From Flavobacteriales bacterium (lineage in GTDB: Bacteria; Bacteroidota; Bacteroidia; Flavobacteriales; BACL11), in assembly GCA_002712715.1 (NCBI GenBank), contig PAUF01000017.1:3796-67795 (forward strand): DNA of 64,000 nt, given 5' to 3'. Every line of letters begins with the position of its first letter. Within the stretch, counting starts at the first letter, position 1. Positions 4,984 to 12,535 of this stretch are shown piece by piece. Below the pieces are notes generated by a model. That model ran no database searches. It saw nothing but the letters and a program-made list of their open reading frames with translations, and was not told the origin of the DNA. The position numbers were made by a program, and so were the translations under genes.

Positions 4984-6273
4984 TTATCTTATTAACTGAA
5001 AATTTCCTTGAAATCTCTTTTCACTTCCTAATTCGTCTAATATATTTAACATCCATATATATTTACCACTTTGACAAATATTAAAATCTGAACCACTAAA
5101 TGTGCCATCCCACCCAATATTTGGATCTAAACTTCTAAAAACCAATTGACCCCACCTGTTATAAATTGTAAATTCATAATACTCCAAGTATTCTAATCTA
5201 TATCCTTTTGGCGAAAAAAAATCATTTAAATTATCTGTGTTTGGAGTAAATGAATTAGCAACATAAATTATCAAATCAGGATCTACTATAACTTGATGGA
5301 TTATAGAATCTTTACACATATTAGAGTCATATACAATTAATTTAACATCATAAATTCCTGGGCTTTCAAACCTATGTAAAGGATCTATTTCATAAGAATA
5401 TGTAGAATCTCCAAAATCCCACGAATAATATTCCCAACTTTTAGAACTATTAAATTGAATATATGGATCCAAAATAGAAACTCTATTAGGGACAAATTGA
5501 AAATTTGCATTAGGTAATGGGAAAACTTCAATATCTTTCACTAATGAATCCTTACATCCAAATTCAGAATACACACTTAATTTAACACTATATAAATCAA
5601 TAGATTTAAATTTATGAGATTGTGAAGACCCACTTGCAAAATTACCATCACCAAAATCCCATAGCCAAGTATCTATTGAATCTATTTGAGATATGGACAT
5701 ATCATGAAAAAAAGTTTCTTGTAAAAAACACTGATTCTGAATAGAAAAATCTGCAATTGGATTAGGATGCACAGCAATATCTATTACATTTGATGAGTTT
5801 GCACATCCATTATTATCCACTACATTAATATAATAACTTCCAGAACTGTCAACAAGAATAGATGATAAATTTACCCCATTATTCCAAGAATAATTTATAT
5901 AATTAGAATCTGATATCAATAACACATCGCTTCCTTGACAGAATTCTATATTCCCTTGAGCAAAAATATTGGGACTAGGTAATGGATGAACAATAATTAA
6001 AATACTATCTATTGAATTACATCCATTTAAATCAGTTTCCTCAACGTACAGCCAAAAATCTCCAACATTATAAACTTCTAATTGAATATGTTCTGTGCCA
6101 TTTCCATAAGTAATGTTCGCCAAATTATGCGACATAGTCCAATTATAATTAGAACCATAATGCAAAGGGACAGAAAAATTCTGCAATGTATCACCAACGC
6201 ATAAACTAATACTACTCTGTGAATATAAAGTATTAGCAATGAGAATTAATAAAAATGAAATTATTTTTTTCAT
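4984..6273 (-). CDS. Secreted PKD-domain protein with T9SS type-B (gliding motility-associated/CHU_C) C-terminal domain
   Basis: Signal peptide ...LYS|Q; two WDFGD PKD motifs; CTD YVANSFTPNTDNLND...IYNRWGQLVF...GWDGT...GNFQLIR. Confidence 0.9.
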   Translation of the reverse strand: MKKIISFLLILIANTLYSQSSISLCVGDTLQNFSVPLHYGSNYNWTMSHNLANITYGNGTEHIQLEVYNVGDFWLYVEETDLNGCNSIDSILIIVHPLPSPNIFAQGNIEFCQGSDVLLISDSNYINYSWNNGVNLSSILVDSSGSYYINVVDNNGCANSSNVIDIAVHPNPIADFSIQNQCFLQETFFHDMSISQIDSIDTWLWDFGDGNFASGSSQSHKFKSIDLYSVKLSVYSEFGCKDSLVKDIEVFPLPNANFQFVPNRVSILDPYIQFNSSKSWEYYSWDFGDSTYSYEIDPLHRFESPGIYDVKLIVYDSNMCKDSIIHQVIVDPDLIIYVANSFTPNTDNLNDFFSPKGYRLEYLEYYEFTIYNRWGQLVFRSLDPNIGWDGTFSGSDFNICQSGKYIWMLNILDELGSEKRFQGNFQLIR

Positions 6274-6279
6274 TTTTTA

Positions 6280-7863
6280 CTACCAATGGTTAATTGGGCC
6301 TGTATTAGGAACTGAGAAAATCTCTAAAGTGACACTTGCAGCTGGACTAACACATCCGTTCGAACTAACTTCTATAACATAATAAGTATAAATTCCTATA
6401 TTAGTTTGACCATGAACAAAAGGAGAATTATTACCAACAATAGTAGTTAATGCAGCATCAGAGTACCATTCAAATGAAGTACCAACACCAGAAACAGTTA
6501 AATTAGGAATATTAGCTCCAAAACATGCAGAAACTGGATTTGTTATAGGCATTGAGTTAAAAGAATTAATAGTAAGAGTAACTAATGATACAGGACTCTC
6601 ACAACCGTTACTATTTGTCTCTGTTACATAATAAGTATAAGTACCAACTGTTGTTTGACCTGTATTAAAACTATTACCAGTATAAATAAGATTTGTTAAT
6701 AAAGAATCAGAGTACCATGAAACATTATTACCTATTGCACTTAGATTTGGAATAACACTTCCCTCGCATGCAGTCTGATTTGAAATTAATGGAGCAGAAG
6801 GTAAATTAAAGATTTCTAATGAAATAGTTGATGGAGTACTCTCACAACCATTAATGTCAGTATCAGTAACATAATAAGTATATACACCAACAGCTGTCAT
6901 TCCGGTACTAAAATTTGTTCCAGTAGAAACTAGATTAGTTAATGTGGGATCAGTATACCATGAAATATTATTCCCAACTGCAGTCAATGCAGGTATACTA
7001 GATCCAAAACACACTGTCTGATTAGCAATAATTGGAGATGAAGGGACATTATAAATCTCTAATAAAATAGTTGATGGAGCACTTTCACAACCATTCATAT
7101 CAGTATCAGTAACATAATAAGTATATACTCCAACAGCCGTCATTCCGGTATTAAAATTTGTTCCAGTAGAAACTAGATTAGTTAATGTGGAATCAGAGTA
7201 CCATGAAATATTATTACCAACAGCAGTCAATGCAGGTATACTAGATCCAAAACACACTGTCTGATTAGCAACAATTGGAGATGAAGGGACATTATAAATC
7301 TCTAATGTAACTGGTGTAGATGGACCTTCACAACCATTTAATGTTTCAGTTACATAGTAAGTATATATCCCTACAGATGTTTGACCTGTATTAAAACTAT
7401 TACCAGAACCAACAATAGTAGATAATAACGCATCAGAATACCAGGAAACATTAGCACCAATAGCTGTTAATGGAGGGACACTACTTCCAAAGCATGCTGT
7501 TTGATTTGTAGCTAATGTAGCTGTAGGAAGAGGATTTACTGTAACCTCAACTGTTACTGGCAAACCAACACATCCATTTATATCGGTTTCAATTACAGAA
7601 ATTGTATATACTCCTGGATTAACTCCCCAATCTACAGTTATTTGATTACTTGTAATTCCTGTATTTATAACCCCTCCACCACTAATAGACCACTGATAGG
7701 TAGAACCAGAATTTGGGGGATTAATTAAATATGGTTCTGATAATGATCCAGCACATACGGTTTGCGTTGGAGAAGTATTAGTTTGTGAAATAGATGTATT
7801 AAAAGAAAAAATACAAATAGTTAATACACAAATGAAGCTGTTAAATTTAATTATTTTTTTCAT
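6280..7863 (-). CDS. Secreted protein with N-terminal PKD-like domain plus five ~80-aa Ig-like repeats; no T9SS CTD
   Basis: Signal peptide ...SIS|Q; repeats QTxCxG...WYSD...YTYYVT...NGCES; ends NTGPINHW. Confidence 0.85.
   Translation of the reverse strand: MKKIIKFNSFICVLTICIFSFNTSISQTNTSPTQTVCAGSLSEPYLINPPNSGSTYQWSISGGGVINTGITSNQITVDWGVNPGVYTISVIETDINGCVGLPVTVEVTVNPLPTATLATNQTACFGSSVPPLTAIGANVSWYSDALLSTIVGSGNSFNTGQTSVGIYTYYVTETLNGCEGPSTPVTLEIYNVPSSPIVANQTVCFGSSIPALTAVGNNISWYSDSTLTNLVSTGTNFNTGMTAVGVYTYYVTDTDMNGCESAPSTILLEIYNVPSSPIIANQTVCFGSSIPALTAVGNNISWYTDPTLTNLVSTGTNFSTGMTAVGVYTYYVTDTDINGCESTPSTISLEIFNLPSAPLISNQTACEGSVIPNLSAIGNNVSWYSDSLLTNLIYTGNSFNTGQTTVGTYTYYVTETNSNGCESPVSLVTLTINSFNSMPITNPVSACFGANIPNLTVSGVGTSFEWYSDAALTTIVGNNSPFVHGQTNIGIYTYYVIEVSSNGCVSPAASVTLEIFSVPNTGPINHW
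6811..7306. repeat. Near-identical intragenic tandem duplication, period 243 bp (81 aa)
   Basis: aaatagttgatggag recurs at ~6822 and ~7065; long identical blocks such as gcagtcaatgcaggtatactagatccaaaacacactgtctgattagcaa occur in both copies. Confidence 0.9.
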
Positions 7864-7885
7864 GATTTATTATCTTATTATGTTT

Positions 7886-9733
7886 TTAATTATGACTTAT
7901 TGGTGGAGTATAATACTGACTAACTGGCACAGTTATTACGGATGACCAAGAACTAATAGCACATCCCCAATCCTCTCTAACTCTAACTCTAAATTGAGTT
8001 AAAGCAGTGATGTTATTATATATTATTGGGTTTAAAGTACCCCAGCCTCCATTATTAGTAGTAATGATATTTTGCCATCCAGAACCAATATTATATTGAA
8101 ATCTGTATCTAATAACTGGAATAGAAGTATTTGCAGTCAACACAATATTATCATTTAAACACGCAGTTGAAGGCAAAGCTGTTACAGATACAGAAGGCAC
8201 AGGATTAACATAAATTGTAACTGTATCTGTAAGAATACATCCTGGTGCAGTAAAGGTCACTATAAAATCAGTAGTAGCTGTCAATGTACTAATGAAATTA
8301 GGATTGGAAATATTAGCATTATCTAAATAAATTGAAGGATACCAAGAATAGGTTCCGCTAACATTTGAAAAAGCCGTTAACTGACTAGGAGTAGAACCGT
8401 TACATATTGTTTGTGATTGACTAGTATTTAGAGAAACATTATTATTTCCTAATATATATACTGTATCTATAGATGAACAATTATTAGCATCAGTCACGGT
8501 AACATAATAAATTCCAGGAATAAGACCAGTAGCTGTTTGAGAAATTTGTCCATTTGACCATGAATATACAACCGGAGTAGCTACTGATCCATTAATTAAT
8601 ATAGTATAGTCTTCTGTTTCACCAAACCATGCAGTATTAAAGTCACATGCATTAGCTAGATTATTTGGTTGGTAATCATTATTTTGCATAACAATTCTTA
8701 ATCTACTAAATCCAGGAACAGAATTAATTGGAACTGTAAAGGTAATAATATGGATAGAAGGACTTTGTGTAGGAGAAACTTCAGCAACTAATTCATTAAC
8801 ATCATCAAAATCACCATCAATATTCCAATCAATGTATACACTAGCAATATCAACCAGAGCGAAACCACTCGGATGACAAGTACCTAATGAAAGATTTAAA
8901 GTATATGTATTTCCTGGGGTTAGATCCGCAGAAATATTTGTATAATCCGAGTAATCACTACAATTGTTTGAAGTATTATTAGTAATCGAAATACTATCTC
9001 CATTCAACTCCACATTATCAATGGTTGAATAGTTTATATATTGAGGGGATGAAGCACAATAATTATTTAATTGAGAAGCTCCTACTCCATCAATATTAAC
9101 AGTAGCACTTCCTAATTGATTACAAGTGGCATCAACAACACTAGTCGACAATATCATCGGAGCAAATTGAGAGATCCCAAAATTATTAACTCCACATGAT
9201 TGACCATTTGCAAAAATTTCTATAATGTGTGGCCCTCCACATAAATTAGTAGCAGGATCTACTATAGGTAGAATAGAAGAATTATCAATAGAATATGAAT
9301 AAATATTCGGTAAAATAGGATCAAGTAGAGATACGTTTAGCTCAACATCACACAAATTAGGGCAAGCTTGTGTTGGAACAGGCTGCAAATCGACAATAGG
9401 CATTCTGATTTGAAAAGTATCAGAATAAATAGTATCAGGACAAATAGAAGCATAAGGAGAACTAGCTGTAATTACATAATAACCTGCATCAAGGTCATAC
9501 CTATTTGTACCTCCATTTCCACCACCTCCATTGTACAATTGACCATTGCTAGTATTTTGCCATGAATAATTTAAATATGTAGCTTGAATAATCTGTGCAG
9601 AACCAACTGAACCTCCTTCAGGACAAATAATATGAGAAATATTTGCAGTATCTACATTTACGCTACACTGAGAATAAATAGTGAAATGTGAAAAAATAAA
9701 AAATATTACAAATATTGCAGTCCTATTGATCAA
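7886..9733 (-). CDS. Secreted GEVED-domain / SprB-repeat / Ig-like protein; no T9SS CTD
   Basis: TTG start; signal peptide ...IYS|Q; YIDWNIDGDFDD...SRLRIV...GETEDYTI (GEVED); WSNG...GIYYVTVTDANNC (SprB repeat); ends TPPISHN. Confidence 0.85.
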   Translation of the reverse strand: MINRTAIFVIFFIFSHFTIYSQCSVNVDTANISHIICPEGGSVGSAQIIQATYLNYSWQNTSNGQLYNGGGGNGGTNRYDLDAGYYVITASSPYASICPDTIYSDTFQIRMPIVDLQPVPTQACPNLCDVELNVSLLDPILPNIYSYSIDNSSILPIVDPATNLCGGPHIIEIFANGQSCGVNNFGISQFAPMILSTSVVDATCNQLGSATVNIDGVGASQLNNYCASSPQYINYSTIDNVELNGDSISITNNTSNNCSDYSDYTNISADLTPGNTYTLNLSLGTCHPSGFALVDIASVYIDWNIDGDFDDVNELVAEVSPTQSPSIHIITFTVPINSVPGFSRLRIVMQNNDYQPNNLANACDFNTAWFGETEDYTILINGSVATPVVYSWSNGQISQTATGLIPGIYYVTVTDANNCSSIDTVYILGNNNVSLNTSQSQTICNGSTPSQLTAFSNVSGTYSWYPSIYLDNANISNPNFISTLTATTDFIVTFTAPGCILTDTVTIYVNPVPSVSVTALPSTACLNDNIVLTANTSIPVIRYRFQYNIGSGWQNIITTNNGGWGTLNPIIYNNITALTQFRVRVREDWGCAISSWSSVITVPVSQYYTPPISHN

Positions 9734-9756: not shown

Positions 9757-9765
9757 ACAAAATTA

Positions 9766-10998
9766 TTAATCCAAAGAAAAGAGTCTAAAATCTTTATATT
9801 TTCTAATCTGAATATCAGTATTGATATGACCCTTTCTATTGGGAATCATATTACGAAAATCTAACAACTCACTGTCAGGCTTGCAGAAATACATTATTGA
9901 ACGAAATGACATTAAAGAGTGATTATTTATTTTTTTATAAAATTTATCTTCAAAAGATTCAAGAAAATTTACATTAAGAGAATCTGAGCTATCAAAAAAG
10001 TTAGATACTGGAATATGAGTATTTAAACGCATTAATGTATGAATATTTAGCTCTGGAATTTTGGAAATAATTTCAGTGCCAAATAAAGAGATGGTTGAAT
10101 CAGATGCTCCACAAAATGAAACAACTTTTTTAACAAATGATTTATTTTCAGATAAAATAAAGATTACATTATGAGTATCCTTAAGAAATCTAAAAGATTT
10201 TTTATCAATTTGTTGTAAATTATCATATTTTATATTTTGGATGTTTGAATATATATTAGATAACTTTTTCTCAAATGAATAGTAAATATTATTGAATTTT
10301 TCATCTGCGAAAGAAATAATATATAGATTGTCCCTAAATTCATAACTTTTCAAGGAAATAAATAAAGAATCTAAAGATTGCTTAAATGTAGGTGTAAGAA
10401 AATATGTGTTCTTGGACAATAAGTCATAATTTTTGGAGAGTGGATTAATTAGAATTTTATCATTGTCGCCTCTGAAAAAATTACGAACCAATTTAAAATT
10501 TGCAGAAAATAAAGGTCCAAAAACTATATCTGATGATTTGAATTTTTTATTCTTTAATATTTGTTTAACTGTATCTGAATTATTTTCTGTGTCAAATACA
10601 AATAATTGAATATTAAATCCTAAAGACTTTAAAGAATCAACAGCCATTATGATACCATCAATAAAGTCAATCGATATAACAGACTTTTTATATATTTGAT
10701 TTGTATCTTCATCATTTGACAACCAATACTTAACTAAAGTGTCATTCCTTGCTACATAAAATGGCAACAATACAGATATTTTGATAGTGTCATCTGCAAT
10801 AAAAGAAGATGAAAATTTACTATCAATATATTCTGAAAAATTTGAATCAATATTATTATTTTCTAAGTTTTGATCATTAATTTTCTGAAAACTCTTGGCC
10901 CTCCCTTGCTTATCATGATATCCATACTTTATTTCCTGAGCAATAATATATTCCACAGAAAAAAAAATTATTGAAAAATATATAAATTTTCTTATCAT
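9766..10998 (-). CDS. Periplasmic binding protein type 1 (ABC substrate-binding-like) secreted protein
   Basis: Signal peptide ...IIA|Q from the ATG at 10998; IKISVLLPF...DFIDGIIMAVDSLK..G..IQLFVFDTE...DIVFGPLF. Confidence 0.7.
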   Translation of the reverse strand: MIRKFIYFSIIFFSVEYIIAQEIKYGYHDKQGRAKSFQKINDQNLENNNIDSNFSEYIDSKFSSSFIADDTIKISVLLPFYVARNDTLVKYWLSNDEDTNQIYKKSVISIDFIDGIIMAVDSLKSLGFNIQLFVFDTENNSDTVKQILKNKKFKSSDIVFGPLFSANFKLVRNFFRGDNDKILINPLSKNYDLLSKNTYFLTPTFKQSLDSLFISLKSYEFRDNLYIISFADEKFNNIYYSFEKKLSNIYSNIQNIKYDNLQQIDKKSFRFLKDTHNVIFILSENKSFVKKVVSFCGASDSTISLFGTEIISKIPELNIHTLMRLNTHIPVSNFFDSSDSLNVNFLESFEDKFYKKINNHSLMSFRSIMYFCKPDSELLDFRNMIPNRKGHINTDIQIRKYKDFRLFSLD

Positions 10999-10999
10999 A

Positions 11000-12535
11000 T
11001 TACTCCCATTCAATTGTTGCAGGAGGCTTGGATGATATATCATACACTACCCTATTAATTCCTTTAACTTTATTTATAATTTCACCAGAAATATTTGACA
11101 AAAAACTATAAGGTAAATGAACCCAATCTGCAGTCATTCCATCAGTAGACTCAACTGCTCTTAACGCAACAACATTTTCATAAGTTCTTTCATCGCCCAT
11201 AACTCCTACTGATTTGACTGGTAAAAGAATAGCTCCAGCTTGCCAGACATCATGATATAGATCATTTTCTATTAAAGATGAAATAAAAATACTATCTACT
11301 TCTTGCAAAATCCTAACTCTTTCCTCAGTAACTTCTCCTAAAATCCTAATAGCCAATCCTGGCCCAGGAAATGGATGGCGAGACAATAAAACATCATTTA
11401 TACCTAATGATTTTCCAATTAATCTAACTTCATCTTTAAAAAGTGTATTTAAAGGTTCAACAATTTTTAATTTCATATAATCAGGCAGGCCACCTACATT
11501 ATGATGAGATTTAATTGTTGAGGATGGGCCTCCAGTAGCTGAAATAGATTCAATAACATCTGGATAAATTGTTCCCTGAGCTAGCCATTTAACATTTTCA
11601 ATTCTTTTAGCTTCTAAATCAAAAACATCAATAAATTTATTGCCAATATTTTTTCTCTTTATCTCAGGATCAGAAACTCCGTTGAGAACTTCATAAAAAT
11701 CCTTTTTCGCATCTACACCTTTAACGTTTAATCCAATTTTTCTATACTTTTCTAATACATCATTATATTCATCTTTTCTCAATAAACCATTATTAACAAA
11801 AATACAATGTAAATTATCACCAATTGATTTATTCAATAAAACAGCAGCAACTGTAGAATCTACTCCACCAGAAATGCCAAGAATAACCTTATCATTAGAT
11901 AATTTTTCTCTGAGATCATTTATAGTTTGATCAATAAAAGAATCGGGTGTCCAATCTTGTTTAATTCCTGAAATGTTAATTAAAAAGTTACTAAGCACAA
12001 TTTTACCATCTTCAGAATGATAAACTTCAGGATGGAATTGTATACCAAAAGTATCTTCATTTTCTATTTTATAGGCAGCAACCTCTACATCTCTAGTACT
12101 GGCTATAATACTAAAATTTTTAGGCAGTTTTGAGATAGTATCACCATGACTCATCCAAACCTGAGAACCTAATTTGACTCCAGAAAATAATAAATTTTCA
12201 TTTGATATCTCAGTAAGATTTGCTCTACCATACTCTCTGATCTCAGAAGATGTTACAATACCACCATTTTCATTAGCGATAAATTGCGCACCATAACAAA
12301 CAGCTAATATAGGGATAGTACCTTGAATATTTTCTAAATTTACAAATGGAGAATCAGGTTGTAAAACTGAACAAGGACTCCCAGATAAAATTACAGCACT
12401 TATAGTATGGTCAATAGCTGGTAATTTTGAATATGGATATATCTCACTATATATATTTAACTCTCTAACCCTTCTCGCAATTAATTGAGTATACTGTGAA
12501 CCAAAATCTATAATAAGAACCTTTTTTTGAATCAT
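11000..12535 (-). CDS. guaA: GMP synthase (glutamine-hydrolyzing)
   Basis: [50 protein letters not shown]. Confidence 0.98.

Follow-up and report, generated by a model that had tools for sequence, protein, structure and literature searches.

A split Ig-repeat chain of Bacteroidota and their phages, predicted to be joined by C-terminal strand donation and exported behind a single T9SS sorting domain

Background

Cargo of the T9SS is defined by a C-terminal sorting domain (CTD) of its own, and predictions of secretomes depend on that. Surface fibres can also be built by strand donation between subunits, and donor-strand filaments reportedly include the archaeal cannulae. Chaperone-usher pili, TasA and TLP-1 have in common an Ig fold that stays incomplete until a different subunit supplies a strand, and the donated strand is N-terminal in the TLP-1, CS17, Tas and CupE fibrils that the source describes (PMC11494351). 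In Porphyromonas gingivalis the type V pili (Fim/Mfa) have a tip, a stalk and an anchor and use a C-terminal donor strand; in the accounts cited, their pilins are lipoprotein precursors with a double beta-sandwich fold that require gingipain cleavage, and one pilus component, Mfa5, has a T9SS CTD, the CTD-bearing subunit being the tip (PMC13655056, PMC7835359).

Within the T9SS itself, the orphan type B CTD cargos Fjoh_1123, Fjoh_1720 as well as Fjoh_4934 have the shuttle Fjoh_1677 in common (PMC12618676), while the CTD of PG1035 is uncleaved and anchors on PorP (PMC9143113); these are single chains, for which the cited passages mention no CTD-less partners. Single chains with a type B CTD are also the adhesins SprB of Flavobacterium johnsoniae and GhpA of Aureispira, the latter with disulfides between neighbouring Ig domains according to the preprint (bioRxiv 10.1101/2024.01.29.577165).

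The locus described here appears to encode an Ig chain of the SprB/GhpA kind that has been split over three genes, is re-joined by C-terminal strand donation and is co-exported behind the CTD of its third piece, a reading to which we assign a probability of roughly 0.7.

Genes and domains

The window, i.e. the whole stretch of 64,000 nucleotides of a marine Flavobacteriales bacterium that was analysed, carries three co-oriented ORFs separated by gaps of 22 and 6 bp, as a preliminary description made from the sequence alone had proposed:

7886-9733, minus strand: gene A, the presumed tip or cargo subunit, 615 aa, C-terminal end TPPISHN
6280-7863, minus strand: gene B, 527 aa, C-terminal end TGPINHW
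4984-6273, minus strand: gene C, the presumed base or anchor subunit, 429 aa
9749-9756 and 9758-9765, minus strand: two weak promoter-like TAnnTTTG sites 5' of A

An assembly artefact is ruled out by the intact ORFs and by the same gene order across many genomes. Each product appears, as had been claimed, to have a signal peptide, read by eye as a hydrophobic N-terminus that runs up to a Gln, and the mature chains start with Gln and not with a Cys at +1. The same description placed a TAnnTTTG promoter before the three genes. Two such sites do lie upstream of A, but the motif occurs 118 times in the window against 116 expected; since this is chance level, a promoter here is plausible only.

Gene A encodes a signal peptide, a GEVED domain, Ig-like stalk domains and a donor tail, with neither a head of the type found in B and C nor a CTD; the early remark that the head is absent agrees with the lack of any Pfam match to PKD_6 in A. 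Its features are:

8600-8842, minus strand: GEVED domain, aa 298-378 (PF20009, E 2e-15)
8159-8161, minus strand: Cys525, in strand A' of the final domain, putative partner of B Cys98
7889-7915, minus strand: donor tail YYTPPISHN, aa 607-615 (from the sequence and a strand-A profile)

Homologues of A at the same place in the locus bear other cargo (CUB, L-lectin, C-lectin, IgGFc-binding or of no known kind), and such exchangeable domains support the proposal that A is a variable tip.

B combines a signal peptide, a head, five Ig_7 repeats and a donor tail, and is the only subunit with both an acceptor and a donor. C has a signal peptide, a head, Ig/PKD domains and a type B T9SS CTD:

7525-7785, minus strand: head of B, aa 27-113, a PKD_6 domain without strand A, with Cys98 in the F-G loop (from profile and register)
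6523-6525, minus strand: B Cys447 (mature 421), in predicted contact with C Cys85 (mature 67), expected error 1.1 A
6283-6318, minus strand: donor tail of B, aa 516-527 (interface residues 490-501 of the mature chain in the complex model)
5974-6219, minus strand: head of C, aa 19-100, PKD_6-like without strand A (from profile, register and complex model)
6019-6021, minus strand: C Cys85 in the F-G loop of the head, invariant in 19/19 C proteins
4987-5262, minus strand: type B CTD at aa 338-429 of C (TIGR04131, E 4e-13; PF13585, CHU_C)

That C alone has a type B CTD is confirmed by its CHU_C/TIGR04131 matches, no CTD family matching A or B, and this supports the proposed role of C as the tagged base.

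The N-termini of B and C are homologous, as first noticed by eye (31% identity over 115 columns, E 2e-10), and judging from profile and register the head is the known Ig repeat PKD_6 (PF19408) lacking its first strand, A. B scores 29.6 bits against a cut-off of 25 and C 23.5 bits, just below it, and both matches begin only at profile position 8-10. The head of C starts 6 residues before the anchor Cys and thus has no strand A. The strand that intact PKD_6 repeats possess (P-x-P-x-I-x-G before V-C) is missing from the heads: counted from the anchor Cys, 77% of 2,246 intact repeats carry [IVL]-x-G at -7/-5, vs. 0 of 36 heads. These intact repeats come from giant multi-repeat proteins, the sole matches of a profile search of representatives, which were not taken as distant B's. 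An AF2 monomer of a short B homologue (pLDDT 92) has no head strand before A' and leaves the tail unpaired; a single-sequence AF2 model of a one-domain B was uninformative (pLDDT 44). The heads of C also share a conserved Asp-Ser that we take to be a possible glycosylation sequon. The tree of B heads is mostly unresolved, with no direction of transfer readable from it.

Putative donor tails

The tail had been described as T-x-P-I-x-H-x. A conserved C-terminal motif is indeed there, with T-x-x-I-x-H-x as its core, of which the P is not part. In B it lies past the fifth repeat, which is complete without it. Homologues of B with an N-terminal head end in I-x-H in 96 of 103 cases, and of 120 short B's all but one (119) have the tail at their end; one lineage (L315-L319) has lost the His and kept the Ile. 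The genome has 1,790 ORFs that are 70 aa or longer, and A and B are the only two of them that end in the motif, which is beyond chance. A strict pattern run over 401 genomes, class-wide, gave 7 matches where 5 are due to chance, the real ones being in the window's own genome and in G664; with looser patterns the number of matches was no higher than in controls.

On the strand-A profile the B tails score 3.2 and the A tails 1.7, where the heads score -4.3 and -8.3 and other C-termini -7.2; the tail scores are modest and anchored on the Ile, with 8 unrelated C-termini above the B-tail mean. The His is nearly invariant in tails, yet it is found at this position in none of 2,246 intact repeats, and strand complementation alone leaves it unexplained. 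From one lineage to another, A and B have swapped tail types (L110, L191, L311), and given these swaps no A/B specificity code is evident.

A complex prediction of the B tail with the C head, which the preliminary description had put forward as a check, passed: ipSAE was 0.73 against 0.00 for the best of 3 controls. Of 157 solved pairs 116 attain this mark, and of 215 mismatched ones 2 do, numbers that are approximate with own alignments. Contact agreement between runs was at least 96% and partner pLDDT at least 91. B Ile524 (mature 498) is predicted to sit in the core of the C head, touching F15, V17, L57, V59, D71 and I73. The model covers B-to-C; A-to-B and B-to-B docking we infer. The pass may partly mirror likeness to intact repeats such as those of GhpA (9flp), the two parts of a split domain being prone to pass. 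GhpA is the best PDB sequence match (E 3e-41, summed over many repeats) and among the top Foldseek matches.

The Cys count is even in B (17/17, 54/55, 20/20 and 215/216) and odd in C before the CTD (13/14, 42/44 and 18/21), with L137, whose B is fused to a phage neck protein and looks chimeric, and L191 excluded throughout and L308, with B in pieces, from one of the B counts. Long genomic A's are odd in just 7 of 14, and control proteins are split about 50/50. Within intact repeats Cys co-variation gives no discrimination (phi 0.295 for the same repeat vs. 0.297 for the next). Taken together, the model and the parity suggest that an inter-subunit disulfide probably locks the junction, and by analogy with the B-C complex model A Cys525 may pair with B Cys98 in the same way.

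Distribution in Bacteroidota and phages

Of 40 genome regions retrieved through head matches, 37 contain the cassette, which occurs in at least five Bacteroidota families, with the A, B and C trio in 17 of 20 regions of one set and B and C in all 20 of a second set that was chosen by head matches only. When the search started from tails only, a head or CTD gene came directly after the tail in 20 of 22 viral (phage contig) and 41 of 43 informative metagenome matches, bearing out the expected co-location; these loci are related by descent, and the counts are not independent. A scan of genome contigs gave only 3 close loci, and two viral scans with a single A or C protein as query returned close copies only.

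The fetched loci hold only A, B and C, flanked by unrelated neighbours, and the order of the genes varies (A-B-C, B-C-A). In a huge phage, one chain of 732 aa unites cargo with a unit like B, a head like that of C and a CTD, which means that a fission or a fusion took place. Cultured strains also carry the cassette, and it is native to Owenweeksia hongkongensis DSM 17368, with Oweho_1424 as B and Oweho_1422 as C. Hosts and phages have exchanged tips in a modular way. The tail is conserved, co-located with head genes and unpaired in the monomer model; with the register, the complex model and the natural fusion, these observations argue for the original proposal that it docks in the head of the next subunit. 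Of the refuting outcomes named in the preliminary description, those open to a check did not occur.

Proposed export of the joined chain

The genome encodes a T9SS, with SprA, PorV and six PorP/SprF genes (PF11751), none of the six on contig C17. To judge by their signal peptides, A, B and C would each reach the periplasm by Sec. The tail of A would then be donated as strand A to the head of B and the tail of B to the head of C, the register being observed and the binding predicted. The invariant Ile of the tail would enter the acceptor core between strands B and G, and the Cys in strand A' of the donor's final domain would bond with the Cys in the F-G loop of the acceptor's head. The joined chain would resemble a single linear substrate and could pass SprA behind the type B CTD of C; by what is known of the T9SS, A and B would likely ride out with C, the sole tagged piece. 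On the surface the chain would be held by a PorP/SprF-like shuttle encoded elsewhere and would display the exchangeable binding domain of A.

The literature searched contains no description of such a loading scheme for CTD-less proteins and no precedent for CTD-less cargo through the T9SS or for hitch-hiking through SprA. The missing precedent speaks for a reading in which strand donation is real and serves something other than co-export, with A and B reaching the surface by another route (vesicles, lysis or a channel) and being assembled there, or staying periplasmic; phage lysis could free both. We regard this as unlikely, given that A has typical extracellular binding domains, that no further export gene occurs in any fetched locus and that the periplasm is the place of disulfide formation, a point in favour of joining prior to export.

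The tail could instead be a new sorting signal that either a dedicated factor or the T9SS itself recognises, with A and B exported independently of any binding to C. Such a signal would suit the conservation of the His and of its fixed distance to the C-terminus, far beyond what intact repeats show, the tail-like end retained by an orphan A on another contig (L333), and a locus with A and B and no C within 3 kb downstream (L205). This alternative is weakened, and to us improbable, as the tails are confined to the cassette in the genome and in the 401-genome pattern, one lineage manages without the His while keeping the Ile, the B-C complex model passes, and heads that miss exactly the tail-like strand would be left unexplained. 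An autocatalytic ester or isopeptide link of the SpyTag type, between the tail Thr or His and the head Glu, has the high conservation of all three residues in its favour; it is nevertheless very improbable, the Glu being found in intact repeats too, the start of strand G offering no conserved acceptor Gln, Asn or Lys, variants without His existing, and the Cys pair being a simpler covalent lock. That gene fission left the tails and heads as inert relics in three independent proteins is hardly credible, despite the fused relative and the variable gene order, when tails persist from family to family and in phages as bodies and cargo are exchanged, the tail His is a derived, selected feature, and heads retain otherwise unpaired Cys.

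Under the preferred reading of a re-joined, co-exported chain, there may be one B per chain or many. We lean slightly towards a single B, i.e. a fixed trimer, to which the single-B fusion and the internal repeats of B point; many B's, and thus a pilus, have not quite even odds, with loci that hold B and C without A and one-domain B's as signs. No chain of repeated B units turned up in a search among longer relatives of B, which is weak evidence, and a codon-usage proxy put B expression at the 8th percentile, leaving high expression unsupported, although with 2 reference genes the proxy is underpowered. A bolder possibility, which we consider doubtful, is a new class of pilus both built and exported by the T9SS, in which B would be a chaperone-free major pilin with C-terminal strand donation and a disulfide at each joint, C would tow and anchor and A would be a swappable tip; large marine phages with miniature versions would put a fibre of their own on infected Bacteroidota and swap tips with host chromosomes.

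If co-export behind C is true, a tail of about 10 residues loads CTD-less proteins onto the T9SS, chains of several covalently linked proteins can leave by this system, and secretomes as now predicted are incomplete. Hitch-hiking is directly testable with small parts (a mature B of 94 residues and C's of about 160-175), and the tail/head pair is a candidate surface-display tool in Bacteroidota.

Comparison with known systems

The cassette would add a T9SS-based route to donor-strand fibre building. Like the chaperone-usher, TasA and TLP-1 fibres it has an incomplete Ig fold that another subunit's strand is predicted to complete; unlike TLP-1-type fibres, its donor strand is C-terminal and export is presumably by the T9SS, and no usher or chaperone gene was found at the fetched loci. 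A C-terminal donor strand and a tip, stalk and anchor arrangement, as predicted here, would be shared with type V pili, but the cassette, as read from its sequence, has no lipoprotein subunit, its groove would be empty from the start, and its CTD subunit would be the base. No Pfam or NCBIfam match to the Fim/Mfa pilin family was found, nor was that fold among the Foldseek matches listed.

C resembles the orphan type B CTD cargos in that none of the six SprF-like genes of its genome is adjacent to it, although the cassette comprises three chains where those cargos are single ones. Also close are GhpA and SprB, which have the same Ig repeat family, an N-terminal binding end, a C-terminal T9SS sorting domain and, as described, the neighbour-domain disulfides that are predicted for the cassette. 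The cassette differs from them in having no adjoining porP/porE gene, in being spread over three genes with a signal peptide each and a CTD on one piece only, and in its junction repeat, which is split after strand A and has a His in place of the conserved Gly.

Anatomy of the cassette

The three cassette genes, their ends and the gaps of 22 and 6 bp between them are as first described. Head denotes here the N-terminal PKD_6 Ig domain of B and C, which lacks strand A, and tail the C-terminal T-x-x-I-x-H-x peptide of A and B.

7886-9733, minus strand: A, 615 aa, GEVED domain and tail, no head
6280-7863, minus strand: B, 527 aa, PKD_6 head, five Ig_7 repeats and tail
4984-6273, minus strand: C, 429 aa, PKD_6-like head, PKD domains and type B T9SS C-terminal domain (CTD)

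Sequence comparison bears out the homology claimed for the N-termini of B and C; A has no head, as had been said, and the type B CTD is found in C only, in neither A nor B. In the window's own genome (91% complete) the tail motif ends just two of 1,790 ORFs, A and B; 12 proteins carry a type-B-like CTD, and the T9SS translocon SprA, PorV and six PorP/SprF genes are encoded. None of these genes adjoins the cassette. The TAnnTTTG sites upstream of A, a plausible promoter, are no commoner than chance.

The GEVED domain of A (8600-8842) appears, as read from the sequence, to be inserted into a SprB-like repeat, with halves on both flanks. Between guaA and A lies a periplasmic-binding-protein-like gene (9766-11043; weak Pfam match PF13458, E 0.005), kept upstream of the cassette in its own family and one neighbouring family. 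Two genes at 28-1871, judged by their sequence to be amidinotransferase/arginine-deiminase-like, stand side by side.

The tail as a probable first strand

The reference set was 2,246 internal PKD_6 repeats, all intact, from 150 giant proteins. Ahead of their V-C these carry a segment P-x-P-x-I-x-G, in which position -7 is Ile, Val or Leu in 81% and position -5 is Gly in 80% and His in none of the 2,246. The heads (36 from 18 loci) start 5-10 residues ahead of the anchor Cys, and [IVL]-x-G occurs in 0/36; the tails align to the first-strand segment of the intact repeats, with Ile at -7 and His replacing Gly. Mean strand-A profile scores are 7.8 for intact repeats, 3.2 for B tails and 1.7 for A tails, as against -4.3 for B heads, -8.3 for C heads and -7.2 for other C-termini (n = 1,125). 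Since the best of these unrelated termini reach 7.4, the score is support rather than proof. The fifth repeat of B is complete without the tail, which takes the place that the first strand of a following repeat would have. When a two-domain B was modelled with AF2 (82 sequences, pLDDT 92), nothing ahead of A' formed a strand, and the 11 C-terminal residues stayed unpaired rather than joining the protein's own last domain. The tail His, near-invariant and lost in one lineage, may cap the new C-terminus, bind metal or mark recognition.

Distribution in Bacteroidota

By a motif test, 103 of the 120 listed B homologues have an N-terminal head, and 96 of these 103, among the matches listed, end in I-x-H; the remaining seven are incomplete sequences or proteins with a type A CTD. 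The tail likewise ends 119 of 120 listed homologues of the two-domain B. The trio is present in 17 of the first 20 genome regions fetched and absent from three fetched on weaker matches. B and C occur together in 20/20 further regions picked by head matches alone (one B in pieces), with at least one A in 17, and all 20 complete B's of these regions carry the tail, 15 with His and five as I-I-F-N. Strong head matches are patchy, occurring in 30/44 genomes of the window's own family, in 14/19, 14/44 and 1/2 of three other families, and in none of three further families at 44 genomes each. A class-wide search with the tail pattern added one real case, a genome that has the cassette twice, arranged B-C-A.

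A is an exchangeable subunit: its homologues run from 200 to 1,046 aa, retain the tail and carry as cargo a GEVED, CUB, legume lectin, C-type lectin, IgGFc-binding or unknown 170-residue domain. One locus has the entire cassette duplicated in tandem (B-C-A-B-C-A; L307:2919-8710). At another, a gene between B and C (L309:3999-5126) codes for a protein that begins with a cargo domain and also has a tail and a head like that of B; its Cys count is even, and it is possibly a minor in-shaft subunit bearing a side domain. Of the B's looked up, three match public hypothetical proteins of cultured bacteria exactly.

Public proteins identical to B
AEV32420.1, Owenweeksia hongkongensis
WP_210759318.1, Croceimicrobium hydrocarbonivorans
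WP_151691756.1, Phaeocystidibacter marisrubri

Phage and metagenome copies

Tails lie beside head-domain genes in viral and metagenomic DNA as well. The pattern alone matched 22 times in viral contigs, 20 of the matches being B genes. The gene directly after each of the 20 encodes a miniature C of about 177 aa, made up of a head and the CTD, and a miniature A stands beside 18 of them. The metagenome scan gave at least 80 loci, with 20 matches not at the end of a 40-aa ORF; among the matches listed, a head/CTD gene follows 41 of the 43 tail ORFs that reach 90 aa and have sufficient downstream DNA. Since head-tail adaptor, sheath stabiliser, sheath, ligase and Hsp20 families lie nearby, at least some of the contigs belong to large tailed phages. 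One A encoded on a chromosome (L121) shares 71% identity with a phage A, and the smallest B's (L164, L138) are one head and a tail in 113 aa.

The uncultured huge phage LR745206.1 (634,780 bp) encodes what by its sequence is a naturally fused version of the cassette:

L283:2801-4999 (LR745206.1): fused type B CTD adhesin, signal peptide, 732 aa

In this single chain, cargo is combined with a unit that resembles B (38% over 157 columns) and with an end that resembles C and includes the CTD (36% over 113 columns). The parts run into one another without a break, and the junctions lack the His.

Near phage cassettes there are also signal-peptide proteins of 135-157 aa with a Phe end as in outer-membrane barrels (L133:623-1057, L142:2106-2513 and similar; no Pfam match for the two scanned) and other secreted-looking proteins (L145:1-813, L151:3027-4560, L279:1502-3134), one with a T9SS type-A-like C-terminus. 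A miniature tip domain (L149:2886-3449, about 170 aa, five Cys) matches no Pfam or PHROG family, and its closest ESM Atlas clusters are unnamed and mainly viral. L137:3137-4030, a T4-like neck protein start joined to a B gene end, is probably a chimeric assembly.

Predicted joining and export

Docking of the tail into the next head, as first proposed, was modelled for the B tail and C head, where binding is predicted. The C head (mature 1-84) with the last domain and tail of B (mature 410-501) gave an ipSAE of 0.73 (0.74, 0.73, 0.73), the best of three controls 0.00; the benchmark mark is reached by about 116/157 solved complexes and about 2/215 mismatched pairs, counts that are only rough here because our own alignments were supplied to the model. 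The runs share at least 96% of contacts, with partner pLDDT of at least 91. This is a fit rather than cellular binding, since halves of a split repeat may score through resemblance to unsplit chains, GhpA among them. The B side of the modelled interface consists of the tail (490-501) and residues 419-424; Ile498 contacts F15, V17, L57, V59, D71 and I73 of C, a slot among strands B, F and G, and the tail His contacts head residues 13-15.

The model also places C Cys67 (Cys85 of the full chain) against B Cys421 (Cys447), and a B-C disulfide is predicted. In GhpA disulfides join neighbouring Ig domains, the pair in a figure legend being 152 residues apart (bioRxiv 10.1101/2024.01.29.577165). Were the A' Cys of each domain bonded to the F-G loop Cys of the next, Cys counts would be even in B and odd in A and in C before its CTD. 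They are even in 17/17, 54/55 and 20/20 B locus proteins and 215/216 homologues, odd in 13/14, 42/44 and 18/21 C's and in 37/40 and 15/19 A's, yet in only 7/14 long genomic A's. Eight genome sequences and one viral or metagenome sequence, with X or no clear cleavage site, were left out; the sequences are kin, the parity control was uninformative, and a Cys co-variation test did not discriminate.

What has been shown is the anatomy of the cassette, its conservation, the missing strand and the fused form; binding of the tail in the groove of the head and the disulfide are predicted. In the reading we favour, at a probability of roughly 0.7, A, B and C would be joined tail-in-groove in the periplasm, the joined chain would cross SprA behind the CTD of C, and anchoring would be on a PorP/SprF-like shuttle.

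Whether B also polymerises is a closer question, and we put it at slightly below even odds. In favour of a polymer, only B has both ends, one-domain B's exist, A and B tail types swap across lineages, and one locus has two A-type genes per one B and one C. On the same side are three loci where B and C stand without A; an orphan A whose end resembles the tail occurs in one of these genomes, and the other two (99% complete) yielded no A to two queries and 14 candidate motif sites. Conservation is also higher in B heads than in C heads (49% vs 39%, 75/91 pairs), and strong hairpins lie 3' of B in four of the six loci where a gap follows it (z between -2.9 and -5.3, with -1.2 and -2.4 in the other two). 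Against a polymer, the A and B tails of any one lineage consistently differ, the natural fusion holds a single B unit, B grows by internal duplication, from a single domain up to about seven, and the 6-bp gap between B and C in the window leaves no room for a hairpin; codon usage lends a polymer no support, and no chaperone gene was seen.

Comparison with known systems

Searches of full text, mostly outside the subscription literature, yielded no description of the cassette. Its building blocks are familiar ones, namely PKD_6/Ig_7 repeats, a type B CTD and complementation by a donor strand. The cassette itself does not fit the type V pili, the chaperone-usher pili or the single-chain T9SS adhesins, though by its predicted binding it would work as a donor-strand fibre does.
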